64,000 nucleotides of DNA from a virus, in IMG/VR virus record IMGVR_UViG_3300036820_000015, positions 1 to 64,000 of that record. One strand, written 5' to 3'. The notes beneath the pieces are model-generated. The model had not been told where the DNA came from. It ran no database searches and saw nothing but the letters and a program-made list of their open reading frames with translations. Positions 2,693 to 29,730 of the stretch are shown piece after piece. Every line of letters starts with the position of its first letter. Positions within the stretch are counted from its first letter, which is position 1. A program made the position numbers and the translations under genes.

Positions 2693-2721
2693 ATTCTACA
2701 GTACCCCACAGTAGTGTGCAA
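2693..2721 (-). promoter_or_regulatory. SigA-type promoter for the DUF932 gene
   Basis: TTGCAC-17-TAGAAT. Confidence 0.7.
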
Positions 2722-2745
2722 ACTACCGCCTGACCTGGGGCTACC

Positions 2746-2774
2746 TTGACGGCAATCCCCCGAGGCCCCATAAT
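2746..2774 (+). promoter_or_regulatory. SigA-type promoter for whiB, divergent from DUF932
   Basis: TTGACG-17-CATAAT. Confidence 0.6.
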
Positions 2775-2816
2775 CTCCTCGATGTAACTCAGCGCTATAC
2801 CGCAGGAGGTACCAGG

Positions 2817-3218
2817 ATGGGGGGACTCAACCGATGGGTGGAGCAGGCCAGTTGTCTCCAGCTGCGTCGCTCCGGCCAGCTATCGCGAGCCGACACCGAG
2901 CGCCTGTTCTTCCCGGTGCGCGAGAACTCGAAGTTCGATCTGCAGGAGGCCCAGGACATCTGTGCTGAGTGCCCGGTGCTGCGGCAGTGTGGCGAGTTAG
3001 CTCTCTCGCGTAATGAGGAGGAGCACGTCTATGCCGGAATGGCCGGGGCCACGCGCCGCGTGCTACGGCGCCGGGTCCGCAAGGGGGAGGTGACCGTCGA
3101 TGGTGGCTTCTGGGCTAGCCATAGGGCACTGCTCCGGGTGGCGGCCGCTCATCGTCGGGCTCAACGCGCGGCAGCTGCAGAGGCTGCCCGCGCCATGGAA
3201 TCGGCGGTGGCCGTTTAG
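2817..3218 (+). CDS. whiB: WhiB family Fe-S transcriptional regulator
   Basis: W..QASC...LFFP...AQDICAECPVLRQC with four Cys; HVYAG replaces the usual GVWGG turn. Confidence 0.85.
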   Translation: MGGLNRWVEQASCLQLRRSGQLSRADTERLFFPVRENSKFDLQEAQDICAECPVLRQCGELALSRNEEEHVYAGMAGATRRVLRRRVRKGEVTVDGGFWASHRALLRVAAAHRRAQRAAAAEAARAMESAVAV

Positions 3219-3420
3219 ATCGCTTCACCTTCATCGGTGGACGGCACTTCTTACCGGTGGGACTGACCATCACCTCGTACTTGCAGACCTGGCAGATCCA
3301 CTCAATGGGATCGCGCGATAACTGATCCGAGTTGAGTATGGCCCCCCCTCCGCAGCGCGGACATTGTGGTGTATACGCCGCGCGCGCGGAGAGGATGGCC
3401 GGAGTTTTAGGGAGCCGCAT
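3115..3420 (-). CDS. Zn-ribbon protein
   Basis: CPRC...CQVC; overlaps the whiB 3' end. Confidence 0.45.
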   Translation of the reverse strand: MRLPKTPAILSARAAYTPQCPRCGGGAILNSDQLSRDPIEWICQVCKYEVMVSPTGKKCRPPMKVKRSKRPPPIPWRGQPLQLPRVEPDDERPPPGAVPYG

Positions 3421-3432
3421 AACGCGCGGAGG

Positions 3433-3786
3433 TCACGGCTTCCAGTTTCCCTCATCCATCCACTCCGCCACCCGCTCACCATCGAACACCAAGATCCCAT
3501 CGTCCGTACTTCTCATCCCCGGGAACTTCTTCTGATAAGCCGCATCCAACTCCACGGCCTCGGTCAGCAAATGATCGTCCCACTCGGCTTCGGTCATGTA
3601 CCCGTTGTCGATCAGCACACGCGTGAGCGCACTGACCTCCACGCGCAGCAGCATGCTGAGTTCGCGGTGGTCTCTCAGCGCATCACTCTCGGGCTCCCCC
3701 TTTGGCCGTGTACCCAGCTGCCAACCGGCGAATACCGTGCGCCACTTGGCCAGCTTGTTCAGCGCCTCCAGCGTCTTAGCCCTCAT
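3433..3786 (-). CDS. Hypothetical phage protein
   Basis: ATGA-coupled ORF in the minus-strand operon. Confidence 0.7.
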   Translation of the reverse strand: MRAKTLEALNKLAKWRTVFAGWQLGTRPKGEPESDALRDHRELSMLLRVEVSALTRVLIDNGYMTEAEWDDHLLTEAVELDAAYQKKFPGMRSTDDGILVFDGERVAEWMDEGNWKP

Positions 3787-4175
3787 GATCCGGTCGCTGA
3801 ATCGAACATGTCCTGGAACCGCTTCGCATCGTCGGGACTTATCTGCTCAACTTGAGCAATCAGGTCAGGAATCAAGGTTGCCGACTTCTTACTGGCGGCC
3901 TTTTCGATCTTGAGAATGACTTCAGTGGCTGATTGCCCAGTCCCCTCACTCAAGAGAGCGACAGCTGTGCCGAGGAAGATGAGCAACGGCTGCACGGCGT
4001 CACTGTCGTATAGGGATGAGATAAGCGTATGGCCTTCTTGCCAGTCTCCCTCAGCCATGGTCTGAACGGCCGCACACACTACGGTCCGGACAAAGATCGC
4101 CCATTCCTCATAACTCAACAGCCCATCGCGATAGCGTTGGACTGTCTGTAGAATCCTTTCACCCTCCTCATTCAT
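3783..4175 (-). CDS. Hypothetical protein
   Basis: ATGA-coupled on both sides. Confidence 0.6.
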   Translation of the reverse strand: MNEEGERILQTVQRYRDGLLSYEEWAIFVRTVVCAAVQTMAEGDWQEGHTLISSLYDSDAVQPLLIFLGTAVALLSEGTGQSATEVILKIEKAASKKSATLIPDLIAQVEQISPDDAKRFQDMFDSATGS

Positions 4176-21181: not shown

Positions 21182-24100
21182 GTGCAGGCGCTCCCGATCA
21201 GGCTGAGGAAAGACGGTCCCTCTCAGTCAGATGTCCACACCGACGGTCCCGGCACCATCGGCCCCGTCTGCACCTTCTCTCCCGGCCCTGGCTTCAAGAC
21301 GTGTCCGAAGTGTGGTGGCGACCCGAGCACGCACATGGCGCCCCCGAGTATTGCTCAGCTGGAGAAGGACAGAGCAGTCGCTCAGCCCCTCCGTTGCCCG
21401 AAGTGTGGGAGCACAGATACCGGCCTCCTCCCTCCCGACTTCGAGACACTGAAGTGCCATGCGTGTGAGAGGAATTCTCCTTTCATCAAAGCGGCTATCT
21501 CTGTCGCTGGCCTCTGCGTCAAAGCTATTGACACCGGCCGCGTCCTACTCATCGAGCGAGGAGTTGACCCCAATGACCCAGCCTCCGAATGTTTCGAGTT
21601 CCCCGGCGGCCACCTCAACCCCGGAGAATCCCCCGCTGACGCAGCACTCCGCGAGTGGGCCGAAGAGGTCGGCGTCCATCCTCCACCCGGTTACTTCCTC
21701 TCAACTTGGACCCATGGGATCTATCGAGGCTTCATTTATCTCACTGCTACCGAGACCATTTCACCCGAGCACTGGCACGCTCACAGCAATCCCGACAATC
21801 CTGACGGGGATGTAGTCGAGAGTGCGATGTGGGTCGATCCGCGCGCTGCGCGGAGTTTCACTGATCTACGCGCTGAGCTAAAGGGGGACACTGCTCTCTG
21901 GGACCAGATTGAACGAGCCGGGACACCGTATGCATTACTCCCCATCTCGCTCTACAAGGAGGCTGCTGGCCACCCCTTTCGCGGCAACCAGTACACCGGT
22001 GGTGTCGCCTCCGCCCAGATGGGCTCCAACTCCGAACTCGAACGACACGCTCACGCCTACTCCAACTCCATCGGCCTTTCGCGCCCCACCGACATCGATT
22101 ACTCCAAAGTGAAAGTCGACACGCCCACGGCCAAGTCCATCGCGCGCGCCTATGACGCTCTCCCCAAACGCGATCCCGAGGCCTCTCCCGCCTTCGCCCA
22201 GATGGCCAAGGAGATCGAGCAGCAGTACGCCTATCTGACCGGGCCCATGGGCATCAAGGTTGATGTAACGCGCGAAGACCCTTACGCCACGGTCCAGGAG
22301 ATGCAGCACGATGTCACGCAGAACCACCACATCTCGGTGCTCTCGACTGCCCTCACCGGTCATCACCCCTACTTCACCGACGAGCAGAACGATCACTTCC
22401 GGGCCGTCCACGACACCTTCGGACATGCAGCCACCGGTCGTGGTTTCGACCGCCATGGCGAGGAGGCAGCCTGGCTATCCCATTCTCTGATGTTCTCTCC
22501 CCTGGCGCGTCGCGCTATGACCACTGAGACACGCGGCCAGAACTCCGTGCTCACCCAAGAGCGTCACGGCTTCCCCGAGCAGAAGGTGGCACTGCTGCCG
22601 GACAAGTTCTCTACCATCCCTAACTCAATCATCCGCAAGATGATGAGGAAAGCATTAGTGGCGCAGTCGACTCTGCGGCACTGTATTGCTGGGCGCGCTC
22701 AGTTGGACCGGATGCAGTGGCAGCCACCATTCGCCAAAGGATTCTTCCCATTCCTCAAGTTGGGTAATGTCACTTGGGACGAACAGAAACACCCGCGCGG
22801 CCAGCCCACCAACGCTGGAGAGTTCGCATCAGACCCCGGTGGTGGGAGTAAGAAGCCAAAGGGGATTGGCAGAAAGACTATGGGCTCAGCCACTCCCGTC
22901 ACCGACGATGATGTCCCCGGCGACAACATTCAGAACCATGAGGGCACAGCCACTCTCAACGAGGCTATGCAGGATCAGGAGGCTAAAGCTGGAGGTTCGG
23001 GACAGGCTAAAGCTCAGGTGGCCCATCTGGTGTCGGCCGATATGGTGGATAACTGGGGGGACAGGTTCGATGCCAACTTTATGAGGTCTCGGAGCATCAG
23101 CCCGGAAGACCTGAAGATTCCAGGGGCACTCGTTGTGAAGAACCTCAACGACGGCTCGGTGAACGTCTGGAAGCCAAGTAAGCACACGGGTGGGATTGGC
23201 TCCTTTTCGATAAGTTTCAATGAGCGCAAGCAAGCTGTCCCGGCCAACTCCCCCGAAGCCCTCACCGCTATCCGCGAAGGCGGAGTCTCCTCCCTCATCT
23301 CCCTCTGGGCCGGTTCCTCCAACGACTCCTCCGACAAGTCCCTGGCCATCCAAGACGCCGCCATCGCTGAGTTCGGACTCAAGAACACCTCCGAGTGGAC
23401 CGAGTACCGTAACCCTGACTCCGTCAAAGAGGAGTTCGACAAGAACGGTGACATGTACCGAGCCTTCCTCCGCTCCCAGTACAACGTCACCCAGAAGGAC
23501 CTGGCTGCACGCGGCGTCACTACCGTCATGTTGGAGCGCGGCGTCAAAGACGACCCTGAGACCAACGACGCTGAGGACAATGGTGATGGCACGGCCACGG
23601 TCAAGATGCGGCCACTCTCCTCCTGGTCAGTCAACCCCGACACTGCTGAGAACTCCTTTGGCAGTGGGGGGACGACGTATCGCGCTGAGTTTCCGGCCAA
23701 CCGGATTCTTTCCACCACCCTGACCGGATTTGGCTGCCTGGGTGAGAGTGAGGTGGTGCCGCTGGGGGATCAGGAGACGGTGGGTCTCGTGGGTGGGCAG
23801 TGGAATGGTGAGAGTCAGTCCTCTATCAATGAGGAGTGGGCATCTAATGGGCCGCAACAGGAGTGGGCTGACAACATCACCGAGGGATCTGATGAGACCT
23901 ATAGCGAGGATGATCTCAGCAGTATGTGGGCTGAAGAGATGGAGTCGCAGAACTCTGATGCCGTTGCCGCTTGGCTCTCAGGCCAGGACGATATAGAGAA
24001 TCTCACTACCAAACAGGAATGGGCTGAGAGCTATACCTCCGACTATGACGCAGCCTCAGCTGAAGGCCCTGTCACTTCGGAGGAGCTTGATGACGGTTGG

Positions 24101-24661
24101 ACTGGCCATGTTGACGATGAGAACGTCGACACTCTGAACCAGTTCCTTGGCCCCCACCCCGAAGCGAAGGACTGGACGCTCCAGTGGGCGAAGACACAGG
24201 GTGCCGGGTTCTTCAACTATGCCGGGCCAACAGTCGGAGTGCTCATTGACCCGAAGCTGATTGGTGACGGCGTGATGCTGAATGCAGGGGAGTTGGATAA
24301 AGCGTGGGAGAACCACCTCGAAGGCCTCGATAAGCTGAACGAGGGACCATCCGCAGATCAGGACCAAGGACAGAAGCCCTCACTCCCGGGCATGGCTCAG
24401 TTTGCTGGACCTACTGGCGGCAACACATACAAGCCGGTCGGCCCCGGCGTCCTCCCTCTCGGCCTGAAGCTAGGGAAGCCGACACCATCAAAGGATGGAC
24501 CGAAGCTCCTCGACGTGGGCCAGGACAAGTTCCTTAATGCTGATGACCAACCACCCTCCTTCGGCATCGGATGGCAGAAGATCGGTCCGCACAAGTACAA
24601 AGCAGCTTCGGGAGTCATCGCTACCCAGGACCCAAAGACGAAGAAGTGGAGCGAGGAGTAA
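21182..24661 (+). CDS. Polyvalent protein: capsid-like N-peptide, Zn ribbon, Nudix hydrolase, HDxxGH peptidase-like domain, ADP-ribosyltransferase, acidic tail
   Basis: Nudix box GHLNPGESPADAALREWAEEVGV (21608-21676); FRAVHDTFGH..GEE..TETRGQNS; ART R-S-E triad LERG / LSSWS / GESEV. Confidence 0.8.
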   Translation: MQALPIRLRKDGPSQSDVHTDGPGTIGPVCTFSPGPGFKTCPKCGGDPSTHMAPPSIAQLEKDRAVAQPLRCPKCGSTDTGLLPPDFETLKCHACERNSPFIKAAISVAGLCVKAIDTGRVLLIERGVDPNDPASECFEFPGGHLNPGESPADAALREWAEEVGVHPPPGYFLSTWTHGIYRGFIYLTATETISPEHWHAHSNPDNPDGDVVESAMWVDPRAARSFTDLRAELKGDTALWDQIERAGTPYALLPISLYKEAAGHPFRGNQYTGGVASAQMGSNSELERHAHAYSNSIGLSRPTDIDYSKVKVDTPTAKSIARAYDALPKRDPEASPAFAQMAKEIEQQYAYLTGPMGIKVDVTREDPYATVQEMQHDVTQNHHISVLSTALTGHHPYFTDEQNDHFRAVHDTFGHAATGRGFDRHGEEAAWLSHSLMFSPLARRAMTTETRGQNSVLTQERHGFPEQKVALLPDKFSTIPNSIIRKMMRKALVAQSTLRHCIAGRAQLDRMQWQPPFAKGFFPFLKLGNVTWDEQKHPRGQPTNAGEFASDPGGGSKKPKGIGRKTMGSATPVTDDDVPGDNIQNHEGTATLNEAMQDQEAKAGGSGQAKAQVAHLVSADMVDNWGDRFDANFMRSRSISPEDLKIPGALVVKNLNDGSVNVWKPSKHTGGIGSFSISFNERKQAVPANSPEALTAIREGGVSSLISLWAGSSNDSSDKSLAIQDAAIAEFGLKNTSEWTEYRNPDSVKEEFDKNGDMYRAFLRSQYNVTQKDLAARGVTTVMLERGVKDDPETNDAEDNGDGTATVKMRPLSSWSVNPDTAENSFGSGGTTYRAEFPANRILSTTLTGFGCLGESEVVPLGDQETVGLVGGQWNGESQSSINEEWASNGPQQEWADNITEGSDETYSEDDLSSMWAEEMESQNSDAVAAWLSGQDDIENLTTKQEWAESYTSDYDAASAEGPVTSEELDDGWTGHVDDENVDTLNQFLGPHPEAKDWTLQWAKTQGAGFFNYAGPTVGVLIDPKLIGDGVMLNAGELDKAWENHLEGLDKLNEGPSADQDQGQKPSLPGMAQFAGPTGGNTYKPVGPGVLPLGLKLGKPTPSKDGPKLLDVGQDKFLNADDQPPSFGIGWQKIGPHKYKAASGVIATQDPKTKKWSEE

Positions 24662-25002
24662 TGGGCAATCGCACTCTCTCCGAAGACTGGATCAAGCTCA
24701 AGACCTGGGACCTCCCCACCACTCTCTCCTCTCTCCTCTCCATCCTCAACGTCTCCTCCTCGCCCCCCTACACCCAACGCCAAGCCCTCCGGCGTCTCAC
24801 GCGCCAGCCCGCTTTCCGTGCCTGCCCTCCTCAACTTCGTCAGGCCATCACTCACTTCATCGGTGCTCAGCCCAAACCGAAGACCCCTGGTGTCCATCAG
24901 TCCCCCACCGCTGACGACCGTCCCCCTCTGCTCCACATGCCTGCTCCCACCACCAAATCCCTCCTCTCTGTCTTCCTGAAGCGACTCAACGAGGATGGCT
25001 AG
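24661..25002 (+). CDS. Hypothetical protein coupled to the polyvalent protein
   Basis: TAATG overlap; DWIKLKTWDLP motif. Confidence 0.6.
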   Translation: MGNRTLSEDWIKLKTWDLPTTLSSLLSILNVSSSPPYTQRQALRRLTRQPAFRACPPQLRQAITHFIGAQPKPKTPGVHQSPTADDRPPLLHMPAPTTKSLLSVFLKRLNEDG

Positions 25003-25039
25003 CCCTCAAGTTCCGCGCGCGCGGTGCCGATACCCAGGC

Positions 25040-25159
25040 ATGAGATATGCCGCCCACCAACACGACCAGTCCCGCCTCGACCGTTTCCTCCTAATCACCA
25101 CCATCTCCATTGCAATCGTGGCAATCCTGCTGCTCCCCTCCGTCGTCCTGCTACTGTGA
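25040..25159 (+). CDS. 39-aa single-TM peptide
   Basis: MRYAAHQHDQSRLDRFLLITTISIAIVAILLLPSVVLLL. Confidence 0.45.
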   Translation: MRYAAHQHDQSRLDRFLLITTISIAIVAILLLPSVVLLL

Positions 25160-25352
25160 GCCGTCTTGGGAGGGGGTGGGCGGGATATGCGACCACTAAC
25201 AGCCAGCCAGCCGTTATGGAGCCGTCCACTTCCTCCCACCTAGGTCGGGGCCCGGAGGCTGGAGTCATGGAACCAGCTGGTCGGCTTACGAGGTGTCTCC
25301 TGCTGCGGATGGTGGCTTCAGGCCCAACTGACGTCGGCTACCGGGTCCCGAC

Positions 25353-25388
25353 CTAGTCCATCCCCCGCTCCCCCACCCGTGCCATCCT
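25353..25388 (+). promoter_or_regulatory. Phage promoter motif before protease
   Basis: CTAGTCCATCC with GTCC at 25356, CATCCT at +27, ATG at +40. Confidence 0.7.
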
Positions 25389-25395
25389 GGGTGCT

Positions 25396-27468
25396 ATGAC
25401 CACCCTTCTCGATGCCGCTGAGTCCACTGCCTTTGCCGAGATGCCGGACGACCGGCTCATTTCGGCTGAGGATGGACTGCACAAAATGTTCGCCGTGAAG
25501 AAAGCAGCTGGGCTCGACACCGTCGAACTCCAGTCGGCTCACACTCTGCTCGCCCGGCAGATGTTCAAGCGGGGCCTCTTCTACGAGCCCCTCACCGCCG
25601 AGCCTGCTCCCCTGGCCCCGGCTCCCGAGACCCAGGTGCGCAAGGACATCGGGCCGCACTCCTACTTCTCGGGCTGTTGTGACTTCTCTGCCACCGATCA
25701 CATGGCCAAGGCCGTCGGCACCGATGGCTCTCTCGGCAAGGCTCTCGCCTCCACCACCGAGGACCGCCAGCAGGGAGCCGAGAACGGCCTCGCTCTGCCC
25801 GATGGGTGTCTGGCTGCCGAGACACTGGTCACCACTTTGGATGGCCCCCAGCGGATCGACTCCCTCCTCGGCCCCTGCACCGTCCTGACCGATCAGGGCT
25901 GGGTGGAGGCTGAGGTCCGAGACTTTGGTCTCGGGACCCTCTTCGAGGTGGTGCTTCGACGTGGGTCCGAGGAACGGACAATCAGCGCCACTCTCAACCA
26001 CCGCTGGGTTACAACCGATGGCACCTTCGTGACGACCGACCAACTCAGGGATGTGGAAATCCCCTTCGTCGATATGGCAAACTTTGCCAATGTCATCACG
26101 TCGCGTCCCGCCCGATCAACGCAAGCACTTGCCAGCATTGGTGGTGGGAGGGCCGGAGACGCATCAGGTCTGCTCGAAGTGCGGGAAGAAGAAACCGGTA
26201 GCGGAGTTCTACGTCCGCAAGATTGTCCAGCCCAACCGGTATCGCCGAGACTGCATCAAATGCTGTCTCAAACGGACGACCGAGTACGGGCTGGCGAATC
26301 CCGAGAAGAGTGGACGCAATGCTCGACGGGCGAAGCTCAGGACCTTCGGTCTCACAGAGGATCAGTACGAAGCATTGCTCGACGTTCAGGCCGGGGTCTG
26401 CGCTCTTTGCGGACACTCCGAACGGGACTCGACTCGAAAACGCCTACCAGTGGACCATTCGCATCGGCTTGGGCATGTGCGCGGGCTCTTGTGCGCTTAC
26501 TGCAATCGGCAGTTGGGATGGATCGAATCCATCGGGGTGGGTCGCGTCATCGGATATCTCCTTGGCGAGTCGTTGCTGTTGCAGCAACCTCCCGCACCGA
26601 AACCGTCTACTGCGCTGTAGTCCCTGGGCTCCAGCGTTTCGTCCTGGCTGACGGCATCCTCACCGGGAACTCCTTCTACATCCCCGACGAGGCCCATCTC
26701 CACGCCTGCATCCGTCTCCTCGACCAAGCTCCCGACCCCCAGTCGGCCATGAACCACATCATCGAACGGGCTAAAGCCATGGGGCTCGAATCGGCACTCC
26801 CTCCGGCTTGGCGTACCGGTGACGGCACTCCCGACGCCACCGATCCAGCCATCAGTGACGGTGCCCACTCCATCGCTCCCGGCACCGCCCCCACTGCCTC
26901 TGGCCCACCGCGCGCCGGAGCTACCCAGCCCGCCAAGGCCAAGCCCAAGCCCACCTCGGCTCTCATGAAGGCCATCGCCAAGTCCGTCGTCAACGGCGAG
27001 TTCTCCGAAGACCTCTTCGCCAAGGCGGCCGAGGAGATCACCCTGGACGAGAACATCCCGACCTACTTCGTCATGAAGTCGGCCAACACCACCGAGCGCT
27101 ACACCTTGGGCCCGCTCTACATGCCCAACACCCTCGACGCTCATGGCGAGTGGGCCTCAGCCACCGACCTCTTCAAGGCCCGGCTCGACTATGTGCGCGA
27201 GGGGGACCGGACGATCTACCTCCAGCACTCCACCCACCCGGCCGGGGAGTGGGTCGACATCGTCCAGTGGCCCCAGGAGGTCCGCTCCACCATGCAGGTC
27301 ATGGGAGCCGGTGGCGTGAAAAAGGCCGAGGCCATCACCTTCCCGGCCGACACCGTCTACCTGGGTGTCGTCTGGGAACCGTGGGCCCACACCGAAGTCC
27401 TGAAGGGCAATATCCAGGGCTTCTCCATGGGCGGTTGGGCTCACCGCATCGAGGGTCTGCCCGCCTGA
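25396..27468 (+). CDS. Prohead serine protease precursor (XkdF-like) containing an intein
   Basis: C-terminal RYTLGPLYMP..DAHGE...IYLQH...YLGVVW...IQGFSMGG. Confidence 0.85.
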   Translation: MTTLLDAAESTAFAEMPDDRLISAEDGLHKMFAVKKAAGLDTVELQSAHTLLARQMFKRGLFYEPLTAEPAPLAPAPETQVRKDIGPHSYFSGCCDFSATDHMAKAVGTDGSLGKALASTTEDRQQGAENGLALPDGCLAAETLVTTLDGPQRIDSLLGPCTVLTDQGWVEAEVRDFGLGTLFEVVLRRGSEERTISATLNHRWVTTDGTFVTTDQLRDVEIPFVDMANFANVITSRPARSTQALASIGGGRAGDASGLLEVREEETGSGVLRPQDCPAQPVSPRLHQMLSQTDDRVRAGESREEWTQCSTGEAQDLRSHRGSVRSIARRSGRGLRSLRTLRTGLDSKTPTSGPFASAWACARALVRLLQSAVGMDRIHRGGSRHRISPWRVVAVAATSRTETVYCAVVPGLQRFVLADGILTGNSFYIPDEAHLHACIRLLDQAPDPQSAMNHIIERAKAMGLESALPPAWRTGDGTPDATDPAISDGAHSIAPGTAPTASGPPRAGATQPAKAKPKPTSALMKAIAKSVVNGEFSEDLFAKAAEEITLDENIPTYFVMKSANTTERYTLGPLYMPNTLDAHGEWASATDLFKARLDYVREGDRTIYLQHSTHPAGEWVDIVQWPQEVRSTMQVMGAGGVKKAEAITFPADTVYLGVVWEPWAHTEVLKGNIQGFSMGGWAHRIEGLPA
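25807..26670 (+). mobile_element. Intein, 288 aa (Cys1 ... TGN/Ser+1, WCT signature)
   Basis: Block A CLAAETLVTT.DG, block B ATLNHRW, blocks F/G VYCAVVPGLQRFVLADGILTGN|S; splicing restores ALPDG-SFYI. Confidence 0.93.
26051..26620 (+). CDS. Endonuclease VII-type homing endonuclease in the +1 frame inside the intein (likely start 26090)
   Basis: CSKC..K...EFY...CIKC; FGLTEDQYEALLDVQAGVCALC...LPVDHSHRLGHVRGLLCAYCNRQLG. Confidence 0.9.
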   Translation: MWKSPSSIWQTLPMSSRRVPPDQRKHLPALVVGGPETHQVCSKCGKKKPVAEFYVRKIVQPNRYRRDCIKCCLKRTTEYGLANPEKSGRNARRAKLRTFGLTEDQYEALLDVQAGVCALCGHSERDSTRKRLPVDHSHRLGHVRGLLCAYCNRQLGWIESIGVGRVIGYLLGESLLLQQPPAPKPSTAL

Positions 27469-27530
27469 TGGTGGGGCCATCTTCCGCCTGAGGTAGCCTC
27501 CTTCCGAGGACATCTCTCTCCTCTGTCCAA

Positions 27531-27573
27531 GCGCACCGCCCACGGCCCCGGCTCACCACCGGGGCCGGTGCGC
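27531..27573 (+). terminator. GC-rich hairpin after the protease gene
   Basis: CGGCCCCGG/CCGGGGCCG stem extended by GCGCAC/GTGCGC. Confidence 0.5.
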
Positions 27574-27600
27574 GTCTGCTCCCCAAAGCGTGCGCTTCCA

Positions 27601-29067: not shown

Positions 29068-29730
29068 CTACAGCATGATGCCGATGTGGTGCTGACGCAT
29101 CCATTGACGAACGCGCTTGAGGTCGGGATGGGCAGCCAGCAGGTGAACGAGCTTGTGGCAGTCGTGGCAAAGGCAGACCATGTTCTCGACCGCGGAGTTG
29201 TTGGGGTCCTCGTCAATATGGTGGACACAGATCCTGGATTCCTTTCGGGTCCCTCCGCAGAGAACGCAGGTATCTCCGTCCCGTTGGACGACCAGGACAC
29301 CGGCCTCTCCGTAACTCGTCCTGACGTTTCGGAGACGCTGCCTTTCAGCCCGTTCTCCGTCGGTGAGGGCCTGTCGAGTCCGCCCTTCCGAGGTTGCTCG
29401 ACGCCTAATGGCCGTGTCGCGATGGGCAGCGCAATAAACCGGAGAAGGAGCTTCAACCGGGTTGTCGCACTCAGCGCAGACTCCTCGCCTTTGGCGTTCC
29501 TTCCGTTGCTGCTTGCGCCACTCAGCACCTTGGGTGCGGCAGTCGACACAGTTCGTCTCTCCGGGGTTGACCGGAGTCCCGCATCGGAGACAGAGCCCTT
29601 TAGCCCGCTTGATGGCGGCATAGACGGTGTTCTCATGGAGACCGAGGATGCGAGCGGTCTCCCGCCCATTTCCGGTCTGCACGAAGACCTCAAGGATCTG
29701 TCCCTGATCGGCTCTCATCCGGCGTGGCAT
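29068..29730 (-). CDS. HNH endonuclease, antisense within the capsid operon
   Basis: N-terminal HTH, Zn knuckles, RDGDTCVLC...VHHIDEDPNN...NMVCLCHDCH; TGC-TAGGTT-6 nt-ATG leaderless promoter. Confidence 0.9.
   Translation of the reverse strand: MPRRMRADQGQILEVFVQTGNGRETARILGLHENTVYAAIKRAKGLCLRCGTPVNPGETNCVDCRTQGAEWRKQQRKERQRRGVCAECDNPVEAPSPVYCAAHRDTAIRRRATSEGRTRQALTDGERAERQRLRNVRTSYGEAGVLVVQRDGDTCVLCGGTRKESRICVHHIDEDPNNSAVENMVCLCHDCHKLVHLLAAHPDLKRVRQWMRQHHIGIML

Follow-up and report, generated by a model that had tools for sequence, protein, structure and literature searches.

A probable composite selfish element: an endonuclease VII gene nested out of frame in the intein of a viral head-protease gene

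The DNA analysed here, referred to as the window, comprises positions 1–64,000 of the 77.6-kb IMG/VR record IMGVR_UViG_3300036820_000015, which stems from a soil metagenome. Its gene for a head-maturation protease precursor carries an intein, and the slot between blocks B and F of this intein holds a gene for an endonuclease VII (EndoVII) that lies on the same strand and is shifted by +1 relative to the intein frame. As far as can be judged from sequence, the most fitting description is that the endonuclease slot of the intein houses an out-of-frame nuclease gene, across which the intein frame is merely kept open. We consider it probable that intein and nuclease together form a composite selfish element, in which the out-of-frame EndoVII would be expressed separately and drive homing. 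The features concerned are as follows, GC denoting guanine-plus-cytosine content, and L003 and L012 two related inteins described below.

25396–27468, + strand: host gene for a head-maturation protease precursor of the XkdF / Peptidase_S78_2 type; open throughout, with 690 codons of which the intein is part
25807–26670, + strand: intein; 288 codons from Cys1 to ...GILTGN, followed by Ser+1; block B with T62/H65/W67, block F with Cys269, block G with Thr286-Gly287-Asn288
25807–26070, + strand: blocks A and B, forming the N-terminal splicing domain; identity of 60% with L003 and 30% with L012; codon-position GC matches the host frame
26071–26562, + strand: read-through linker of the intein frame, ~164 codons; no Pfam domain, no stops, codon-position GC misfit
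26563–26670, + strand: C-terminal splicing domain (blocks F and G); 77% identical to L003; its first 58 bases double as the C-terminal tail of EndoVII
26090–26620, + strand: nested +1-frame gene for an endonuclease VII (beta-beta-alpha-Me); 176 codons if started at ATG 26090, 189 if started at ATG 26051; stop codon TAG at 26618–26620

Comparison with homologous proteins defined the boundaries of the intein. Nine intein-less homologues (380–560 residues) run ALPDG|SFPIPDEAHLHAA unbroken through the insertion point, and the window protein has 288 extra residues precisely between the G and the S of ALPDG|SF. The coordinates and junctions proposed in an earlier note, which a model had made from the letters of this DNA, are therefore exact, the intein-less junction at the DNA level being ...CCCGATGGG/TCCTTCTAC..., and the intein frame is open from Cys1 to TGN/S as stated there, the host open reading frame (ORF) 25396–27468 containing no interruption. 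Among homologous genes the intein is patchily present, which lends indirect support to homing. The motif at the insertion site, A(L/M)PDG-S(F/Y)PI...DL..A......R (window 25783–25806 and 26671–26700; homologues in A1 and A3), is common to otherwise unlike phage head proteins, namely XkdF protease, DUF2213 and Mu-like_Pro-like proteins, all of which have been entered there by the same intein clade.

The intein hallmarks Cys1, T62-x-x-H65, Asn288 and Ser+1 were all found; C1, H65, W67, C269, T286, G287 and N288 are invariant in nine relatives, and T62 alone among the hallmarks varies. Alignment to solved class 1 DnaE inteins, from which the block positions were set, placed W67 at block B position 12 (B:12), C269 at F:4 and T286 at G:5, opposite F, D and A, respectively, of the class 1 proteins. 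Splicing of class 3 inteins begins with an attack by Cys F:4, which gives a branched intermediate at block F, and the N-terminal nucleophile is dispensable. Trp B:12, Cys F:4 and Thr G:5 constitute the class-3 signature (PMC5222942). By its residues the window intein thus bears the class-3 Trp-Cys-Thr signature plus Cys1; because Cys1 is present, class 1 chemistry may be possible as well, and the sequence is compatible with either mechanism. An AlphaFold2 (AF2) model of the whole intein, made with a 9-row alignment, was of low confidence (predicted local distance difference test score, pLDDT, 41.6), too low for its fold to be assessed.

In the +1 frame no stop occurs between 26033 and the TAG at 26618–26620, and a TGA at 26030 lies six codons ahead of the first ATG (26051). 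The ORF 26051–26620 matched the Pfam family Endonuclease_7 (PF02945) with an expectation value (E) of 4.6e-20 and 71.7 bits (cut-off 23.6), and its product matched PHROG endonuclease VII with E 1.7e-27 over residues 36–160. An N-terminal CxxC...CxxC zinc ribbon is followed by a core with CxxC, DHxH and CxxCN; upon alignment to T4 EndoVII (1e7d), the stretches CALC, VDHSH and CAYCN came to lie opposite C23/C26, D40-H41-H43 and C58/C61-N62, respectively, and the zinc ligands and catalytic DHxH/N residues are invariant across 6 EndoVII relatives. With zinc-binding and catalytic residues in place and matches of this strength, the nuclease encoded by the +1 frame appears intact, and its stop lies inside block F, where the TAG overlaps the Ala and Val codons directly after the block-F Cys, both as the earlier note had claimed. 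The AF2 model of the nuclease was of moderate quality (pLDDT 67), with the tails 1–21 and 165–176 predicted to be disordered. The best tblastn matches were ~38% identical, a word-based protein search returned two distant matches only, and the nested ORF was absent among 5.8 billion predicted proteins.

In the intein frame, a domain search of the ~164 codons between blocks B and F found no Pfam domain, the sole match being a weak one to Intein_splicing (E 0.031), so that this middle is motif-less as previously described; Arg accounts for 15%, Ser for 12%, Ala for 10% and Gly for 10% of its residues. When synonymous codons were shuffled such that the EndoVII protein was preserved, the intein frame was stop-free in 0.28% of cases, and in the converse shuffles, which preserved the intein-frame protein, the +1 frame was open in 0.26%. 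Codon-position GC over 26051–26620 was 0.60/0.48/0.67 in the EndoVII frame, like that of the surrounding genes, and 0.67/0.60/0.48 in the intein frame. A search of sequencing runs listed one DNA run containing this sequence, a soil metagenome and probably the very sample from which the record stems, and no RNA run. The independent Logan assembly of that run (k-mer depth 28), compared by its contigs, was identical to the window over 25300–27500 with 0 differences and 0 gaps; as it was probably made from the same reads, it tests the assembly and not the sample.

The same layout was found in L012, a distant relative from another metagenome. Here, an intein at 3001–4068 lies in a 962-residue host ORF and contains an EndoVII ORF (3341/3353–4060, Pfam E 2e-17) at the same +1 offset, the host frame being open in 0/20000 shuffles. 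When the window was compared with L012, the score of the EndoVII frame was 299 (61/150 identical), against 78 (30/103) for the intein frame of this DNA. Frame-wise protein conservation was used instead of the ratio of nonsynonymous to synonymous substitution rates (dN/dS) per frame, which was unsuitable because the protein identity to L012, the sole DNA relative so arranged, is 41% and the synonymous sites are saturated.

Taken together, the identical second assembly, the shuffling results (P about 0.003), the codon-position GC and the recurrence in L012 and, by the back-translation described below, in five more relatives show that the two-frame layout is real and that a sequencing artefact, which the earlier note had likewise deemed improbable, is unlikely; they support the view that both frames are kept open by selection rather than by error. 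The codon-position GC and the cross-species conservation mark the nuclease frame as the one under selection over the overlap, the intein frame being a merely stop-free linker. The sole stretch overlapping the conserved C-terminal splicing block, 26563–26620 (~19 codons), encodes the predicted disordered tail of the nuclease. Hence the dual coding initially proposed for this DNA stands as regards the two frames being held open, whereas with respect to folded protein it applies to these ~19 codons only.

Scanning IMG/VR with a profile yielded 80 related intein loci, and an all-against-all HMMER comparison revealed further relatives with a ‘motif-less’ middle that could be aligned to that of the window. 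For such proteins we used a constrained back-translation, which takes the frame-0 protein as fixed, lists the residues open to every alternative frame and scores the best case against the window nuclease. P0010, P0023, P0036, P0060 and P0099 gave z = 7.8–14.5 in the +1 frame only, and P0001, P0011 and P0012 gave z = 5.7–13.3 in the in-register antisense frame only, where P0012, a protein of known DNA, was the positive control for antisense layouts. No signal emerged in this analysis from three relatives that bear LAGLIDADG domains. The search for relatives with both frames open, which the earlier note had recommended, yielded L012 at the DNA level and five more that fit the layout by back-translation.

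Two sister inteins inserted at the same ALPDG|S motif carry EndoVII in antisense orientation, in register with the intein frame (L003, 4268–4741, − strand, Pfam E 8e-18; L008, 3187–3735, − strand, Pfam E 5e-17). Openness is cheap in this register, since the in-register antisense frame stayed open in 100% of shuffles. Most other family members contain in-frame LAGLIDADG domains. In a tree of 48 splicing domains, built on 125 columns, all 11 EndoVII-bearing inteins grouped together (90/70) within the LAGLIDADG-bearing family, and a clade with support of 96/87 united two +1 carriers, the window and P0010, with two antisense carriers, P0001 and P0012, which means that the orientation changed at least twice. 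The splicing domains (N- and C-terminal parts, respectively) and the nucleases compare as follows.

Splicing domain identity: window and L003, 60% and 77%; window and L012, 30% and 42%
Endonuclease VII identity: window and L003, 34%; window and L012, 41%

The two sets of identities disagree, which is suggestive of a replacement or exchange of the nuclease cassette within the clade, as judged from short alignments. Free-standing EndoVII-like genes were seen near related LAGLIDADG-bearing inteins at L007:4549–5037 and L080:758–1117 and are possible donors for a take-over of the slot. Two further related inteins of 286 residues, L017:3001–3858 and L063:3001–3858, end in ...YTSN; Pfam found no recognisable endonuclease in any of their frames, antisense ORFs included, and L063 has a 308-residue antisense ORF (2710–3636) without a family match. 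The intein family was absent from cultured-phage records, and blastn of 25000–27500 against cultured phages gave no match, nor did viral-contig scans with the EndoVII protein, P0001 or P0011, two metagenome scans and one genome scan.

The composite element is envisaged to work in the following way. The host would be an uncultured soil actinophage-like virus with the element in its head-protease gene, where a HINT-type (Hedgehog/intein) intein with Cys1 and the class-3 signature interrupts the protease precursor at its conserved motif ALPDG|S(F/Y)PI. Its slot between blocks B and F would hold an EndoVII gene of the free-standing type on the same strand, shifted by +1, such that ribosomes translating the host gene cross the nuclease gene in frame 0 and produce a ~164-residue linker that has no fold of its own. 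Selection would keep this linker stop-free by favouring suitable synonymous codons within the nuclease gene, and the intein, including the linker, would be spliced out to restore ...ALPDG-SFYIPDE.... The nuclease (~20 kDa) would have a start codon of its own, probably ATG 26090, for its separate synthesis and would arise, because neither ATG is preceded by a Shine-Dalgarno sequence, most likely from a short internal leaderless transcript. It would presumably cut element-free alleles, which would then be repaired by copying the element, i.e. homing. As to its origin, an EndoVII gene most likely seized the endonuclease slot in a lineage of inteins whose other members have LAGLIDADG domains in frame.

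Several observations weigh against this interpretation. The penultimate residue of the intein is Gly in place of the usual His, yet it is invariant in 9 relatives. At the position of Glu65 of T4 EndoVII the window nuclease has Leu, and its relatives have hydrophobic residues there. Foldseek with the nuclease model gave nothing at E ≤ 0.001, the weak matches obtained being all beta-beta-alpha-Me nucleases (Hpy99I, E 0.03; T4 EndoVII, E 0.2). The +1 layout has been seen in the DNA of two genomes only, the window and L012, the other five cases having been deduced from protein sequences. With regard to expression, the proposed −10 hexamer CAAACT fits TATAAT at 3/6 positions and lacks the first T, a scan of 25300–27600 for consensus sigma-70 promoters and for terminators found neither, and the nuclease gene of L012 has an ordinary ribosome-binding site, GGAG-N6-ATG, so that conservation does not extend to a private leaderless promoter.

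Other data keep the leaderless-promoter idea plausible. The string TGG-CAAACT-TTGCCA-ATG (26090) is present as written in the earlier note, which had read it as an extended −10 and promoter of the nuclease gene, and the antisense genes of L003 and L008, for which promoters of their own are a necessity, are preceded by TAGGCT-N7-ATG and TAGCAT-N7-ATG (TANNNT-N7-ATG), a motif that, as TANNNT-N6-7-ATG, precedes just 0.6% of all ATGs in the window. The free-standing HNH gene of the window (29068–29730, − strand) likewise has TGC-TAGGTT-N6-ATG upstream, i.e. leaderless-type geometry. On balance a private leaderless promoter for the nuclease is plausible though somewhat less likely than not: the motif stands, and its reading as an extended −10 is weakened by the poor hexamer, the empty scan and the site used in L012. 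A palindrome had also been pointed out at this position.

26075–26089, no strand: perfect 7-1-7 palindrome TGGCAAA-C-TTTGCCA, abutting ATG 26090 and including the proposed TGn-CAAACT extended −10

It exists as described, but such palindromes occur at chance frequency, the window containing 18 with 7-bp arms compared with about 21 in shuffles, and it was consequently rejected as the mark of a special element. Three of the 18 lie within the 864 bases of the intein, the other two being GATGGAT-CGA-ATCCATC (26517–26533) and GTTGCTG-TTG-CAGCAAC (26572–26588).

Among the alternatives to the composite element, the one that fares best regards the nuclease as a free-standing homing gene in its own right, for which the intein slot is a harmless landing pad and which spreads from one intein to another, its targets being inteins without it or with another endonuclease rather than intein-less protease genes. 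The discordance between splicing-domain and nuclease similarities (60–77% and 34% for L003; 30–42% and 41% for L012) would be expected in such a case, although different rates of change in nuclease and splicing domain could imitate it. The mixture of +1 and antisense carriers in the 96/87 clade and the EndoVII genes adjoining LAGLIDADG inteins in L007 and L080 also favour the landing pad; the clade, however, comes from a tree of only 125 columns in which all 11 EndoVII-bearing inteins, located at the same extein motif, group together, and co-inheritance would fit this as well. We regard this explanation as doubtful though worth keeping in view. An extended version, to which we give similarly modest credence, holds that the slot itself is re-usable, that unrelated EndoVII genes have been swapped in repeatedly and in either orientation, and that the nuclease targets the slot and not the protease gene, brings its own leaderless promoter and has codons tuned against stops in the intein frame; if true, the swapped-in nuclease would be a parasite of a parasite.

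That the element is a decaying relic, i.e. an intein passed on by vertical descent alone, its linker junk and its endonuclease no longer expressed or active, appears quite unlikely to us. No recognisable ribosome-binding site was found, the promoter motif is weak, the residue equivalent to Glu65 is absent, and no close intein-less allele that could be a current target was found, all of which a relic would explain. Decay is nevertheless difficult to reconcile with an intact ORF of 176–189 codons, which occurs in 0.26% of shuffles keeping the intein-frame protein, with the invariance of all zinc and catalytic residues among relatives sharing only 30–41% identity, and with a nuclease frame that is far better conserved than the intein frame.

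Programmed +1 ribosomal frameshifting would produce the nuclease fused to the N-extein and the N-domain of the intein, with no start of its own, and could be considered because the nuclease lies on the host-gene strand and neither ATG has a Shine-Dalgarno sequence. This is very improbable: the TGA at 26030 closes the EndoVII frame and leaves ~20 codons for the shift, where no slippery motif was noticed; in L012 a stop lies 15 codons upstream of an ATG that bears a good GGAG site; and the route is impossible for the antisense relatives. Least credible of all is an assembly or sequencing artefact in which two compensating indels mask an ordinary in-frame EndoVII intein, a notion raised by the metagenomic source of the contig and by the indels that the earlier note claimed elsewhere on it, since the second assembly is identical (albeit probably built on the same reads), chance would leave a frame of 190 codons open in 0.28% of cases, the +1 offset recurs in L012 and in five protein clusters, and the EndoVII frame has a TGA 6 codons before its ATG and its own stop in block F.

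The composite element, if correctly interpreted, is part of a phage head module. The host ORF is preceded by a 1159-residue Nudix-containing ORF and followed by scaffold-like genes, the free-standing HNH gene and the major capsid gene, whose product is nearest to that of Arthrobacter phages (52% identity). The predicted spliced protease has 402 residues (43 kDa); Pfam PF14550 matched the C-terminal part of the host protein with E 3.4e-4, which is under the cut-off, and the homologues P0003 and P0001 exceed it. In addition to its Nudix domain (PHROG E 5e-15), the upstream ORF (21182–24661, + strand) contains a large domain of no assigned function (phrog_3170, E 5e-50). The HNH endonuclease gene is on the opposite strand and is flanked by the scaffold/decoration genes on one side and the major capsid gene on the other.

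The element extends the design of inteins with an out-of-frame endonuclease to a late structural gene, that of a head protease, which has no nucleotide-binding site. Its intein clade displays three endonuclease arrangements (in-frame LAGLIDADG, sense +1 EndoVII and antisense EndoVII) and therefore constitutes a compact natural system for testing how inteins gain or exchange mobility genes; the element itself can show how tightly two overlapping frames may be constrained. Gene callers overlook nested genes of this kind. In annotation, such inteins should not be logged as decaying inteins or mini-inteins.

The closest known systems are 27 inteins of actinobacteriophages with an out-of-frame EndoVII-like gene ‘in frame 3’, described as unreported until then by Gosselin, Arsenault and Gogarten (bioRxiv 10.1101/2025.01.02.630785). 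The kind of intein nuclease found here, for which the earlier note had considered novelty possible, is hence already on record. In that preprint, clusters 18 and 47 lie in the terminase large subunit, and the 19 host protein types listed include no head protease. The inteins of Gosselin et al. and that of the window agree in having a same-strand EndoVII-like ORF in the endonuclease slot in a frame other than that of the intein, an intein frame that is stop-free throughout and whose middle shows no recognisable fold, and a proposed origin by invasion of a free-standing endonuclease gene. They differ in offset (+1 in the window, +2, or ‘frame 3’, in the reported cases), in host gene (head protease as opposed to terminase large subunit in clusters 18 and 47) and in class, those inteins being listed as class 1 whereas that of the window has a class-3 signature. 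The terminase intein of Gordonia phage Affeca, one of the 27, which we checked, spans 1147–1941 with an EndoVII ORF at 1386–1841 at an offset of +2; no similarity could be detected between its splicing domain and that of the window (E 0.09), whereas the cores of the two nucleases share 39% identity. With the offset of +1 instead of +2 and such dissimilar splicing domains, the window intein evidently represents a separate lineage of the same architecture as the reported terminase inteins.

Antisense LAGLIDADG genes (citing Gorbalenya, 1998) and antisense VSR-like genes in inteins are also described in bioRxiv 10.1101/2025.01.02.630785. Their layout, with a separately expressed gene in the slot and an open intein frame, is that of the sisters L003 and L008, whose antisense gene is, however, an EndoVII, a type not listed as antisense in that preprint; the window's own nuclease, in contrast, lies on the sense strand. 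With free-standing EndoVII homing genes (T7-like gene 13.5, mycobacteriophage EndoVII) and T4 EndoVII (1e7d) the nuclease shares the domain, the zinc ligands and the DHxH/N motif; unlike these, it is nested in an intein, overlaps another frame, has an extra N-terminal zinc ribbon and lacks the Glu65 equivalent. Class 3 inteins are exemplified by the mycobacteriophage Bethlehem DnaB, Msm DnaB-1 and Mch DnaB1 inteins (PMC2807308, PMC5222942, PMC7664689). The window intein resembles them in Trp B:12, Cys F:4 and Thr G:5, with His65 and Trp67 numbered as in Msm DnaB-1, and departs from typical members by having Cys1, the class 1 nucleophile, and Gly, not His, before the terminal Asn. What the window and its relatives add to the known design is a head-protease host gene, an offset of +1, a class-3 signature and sisters with an antisense EndoVII.

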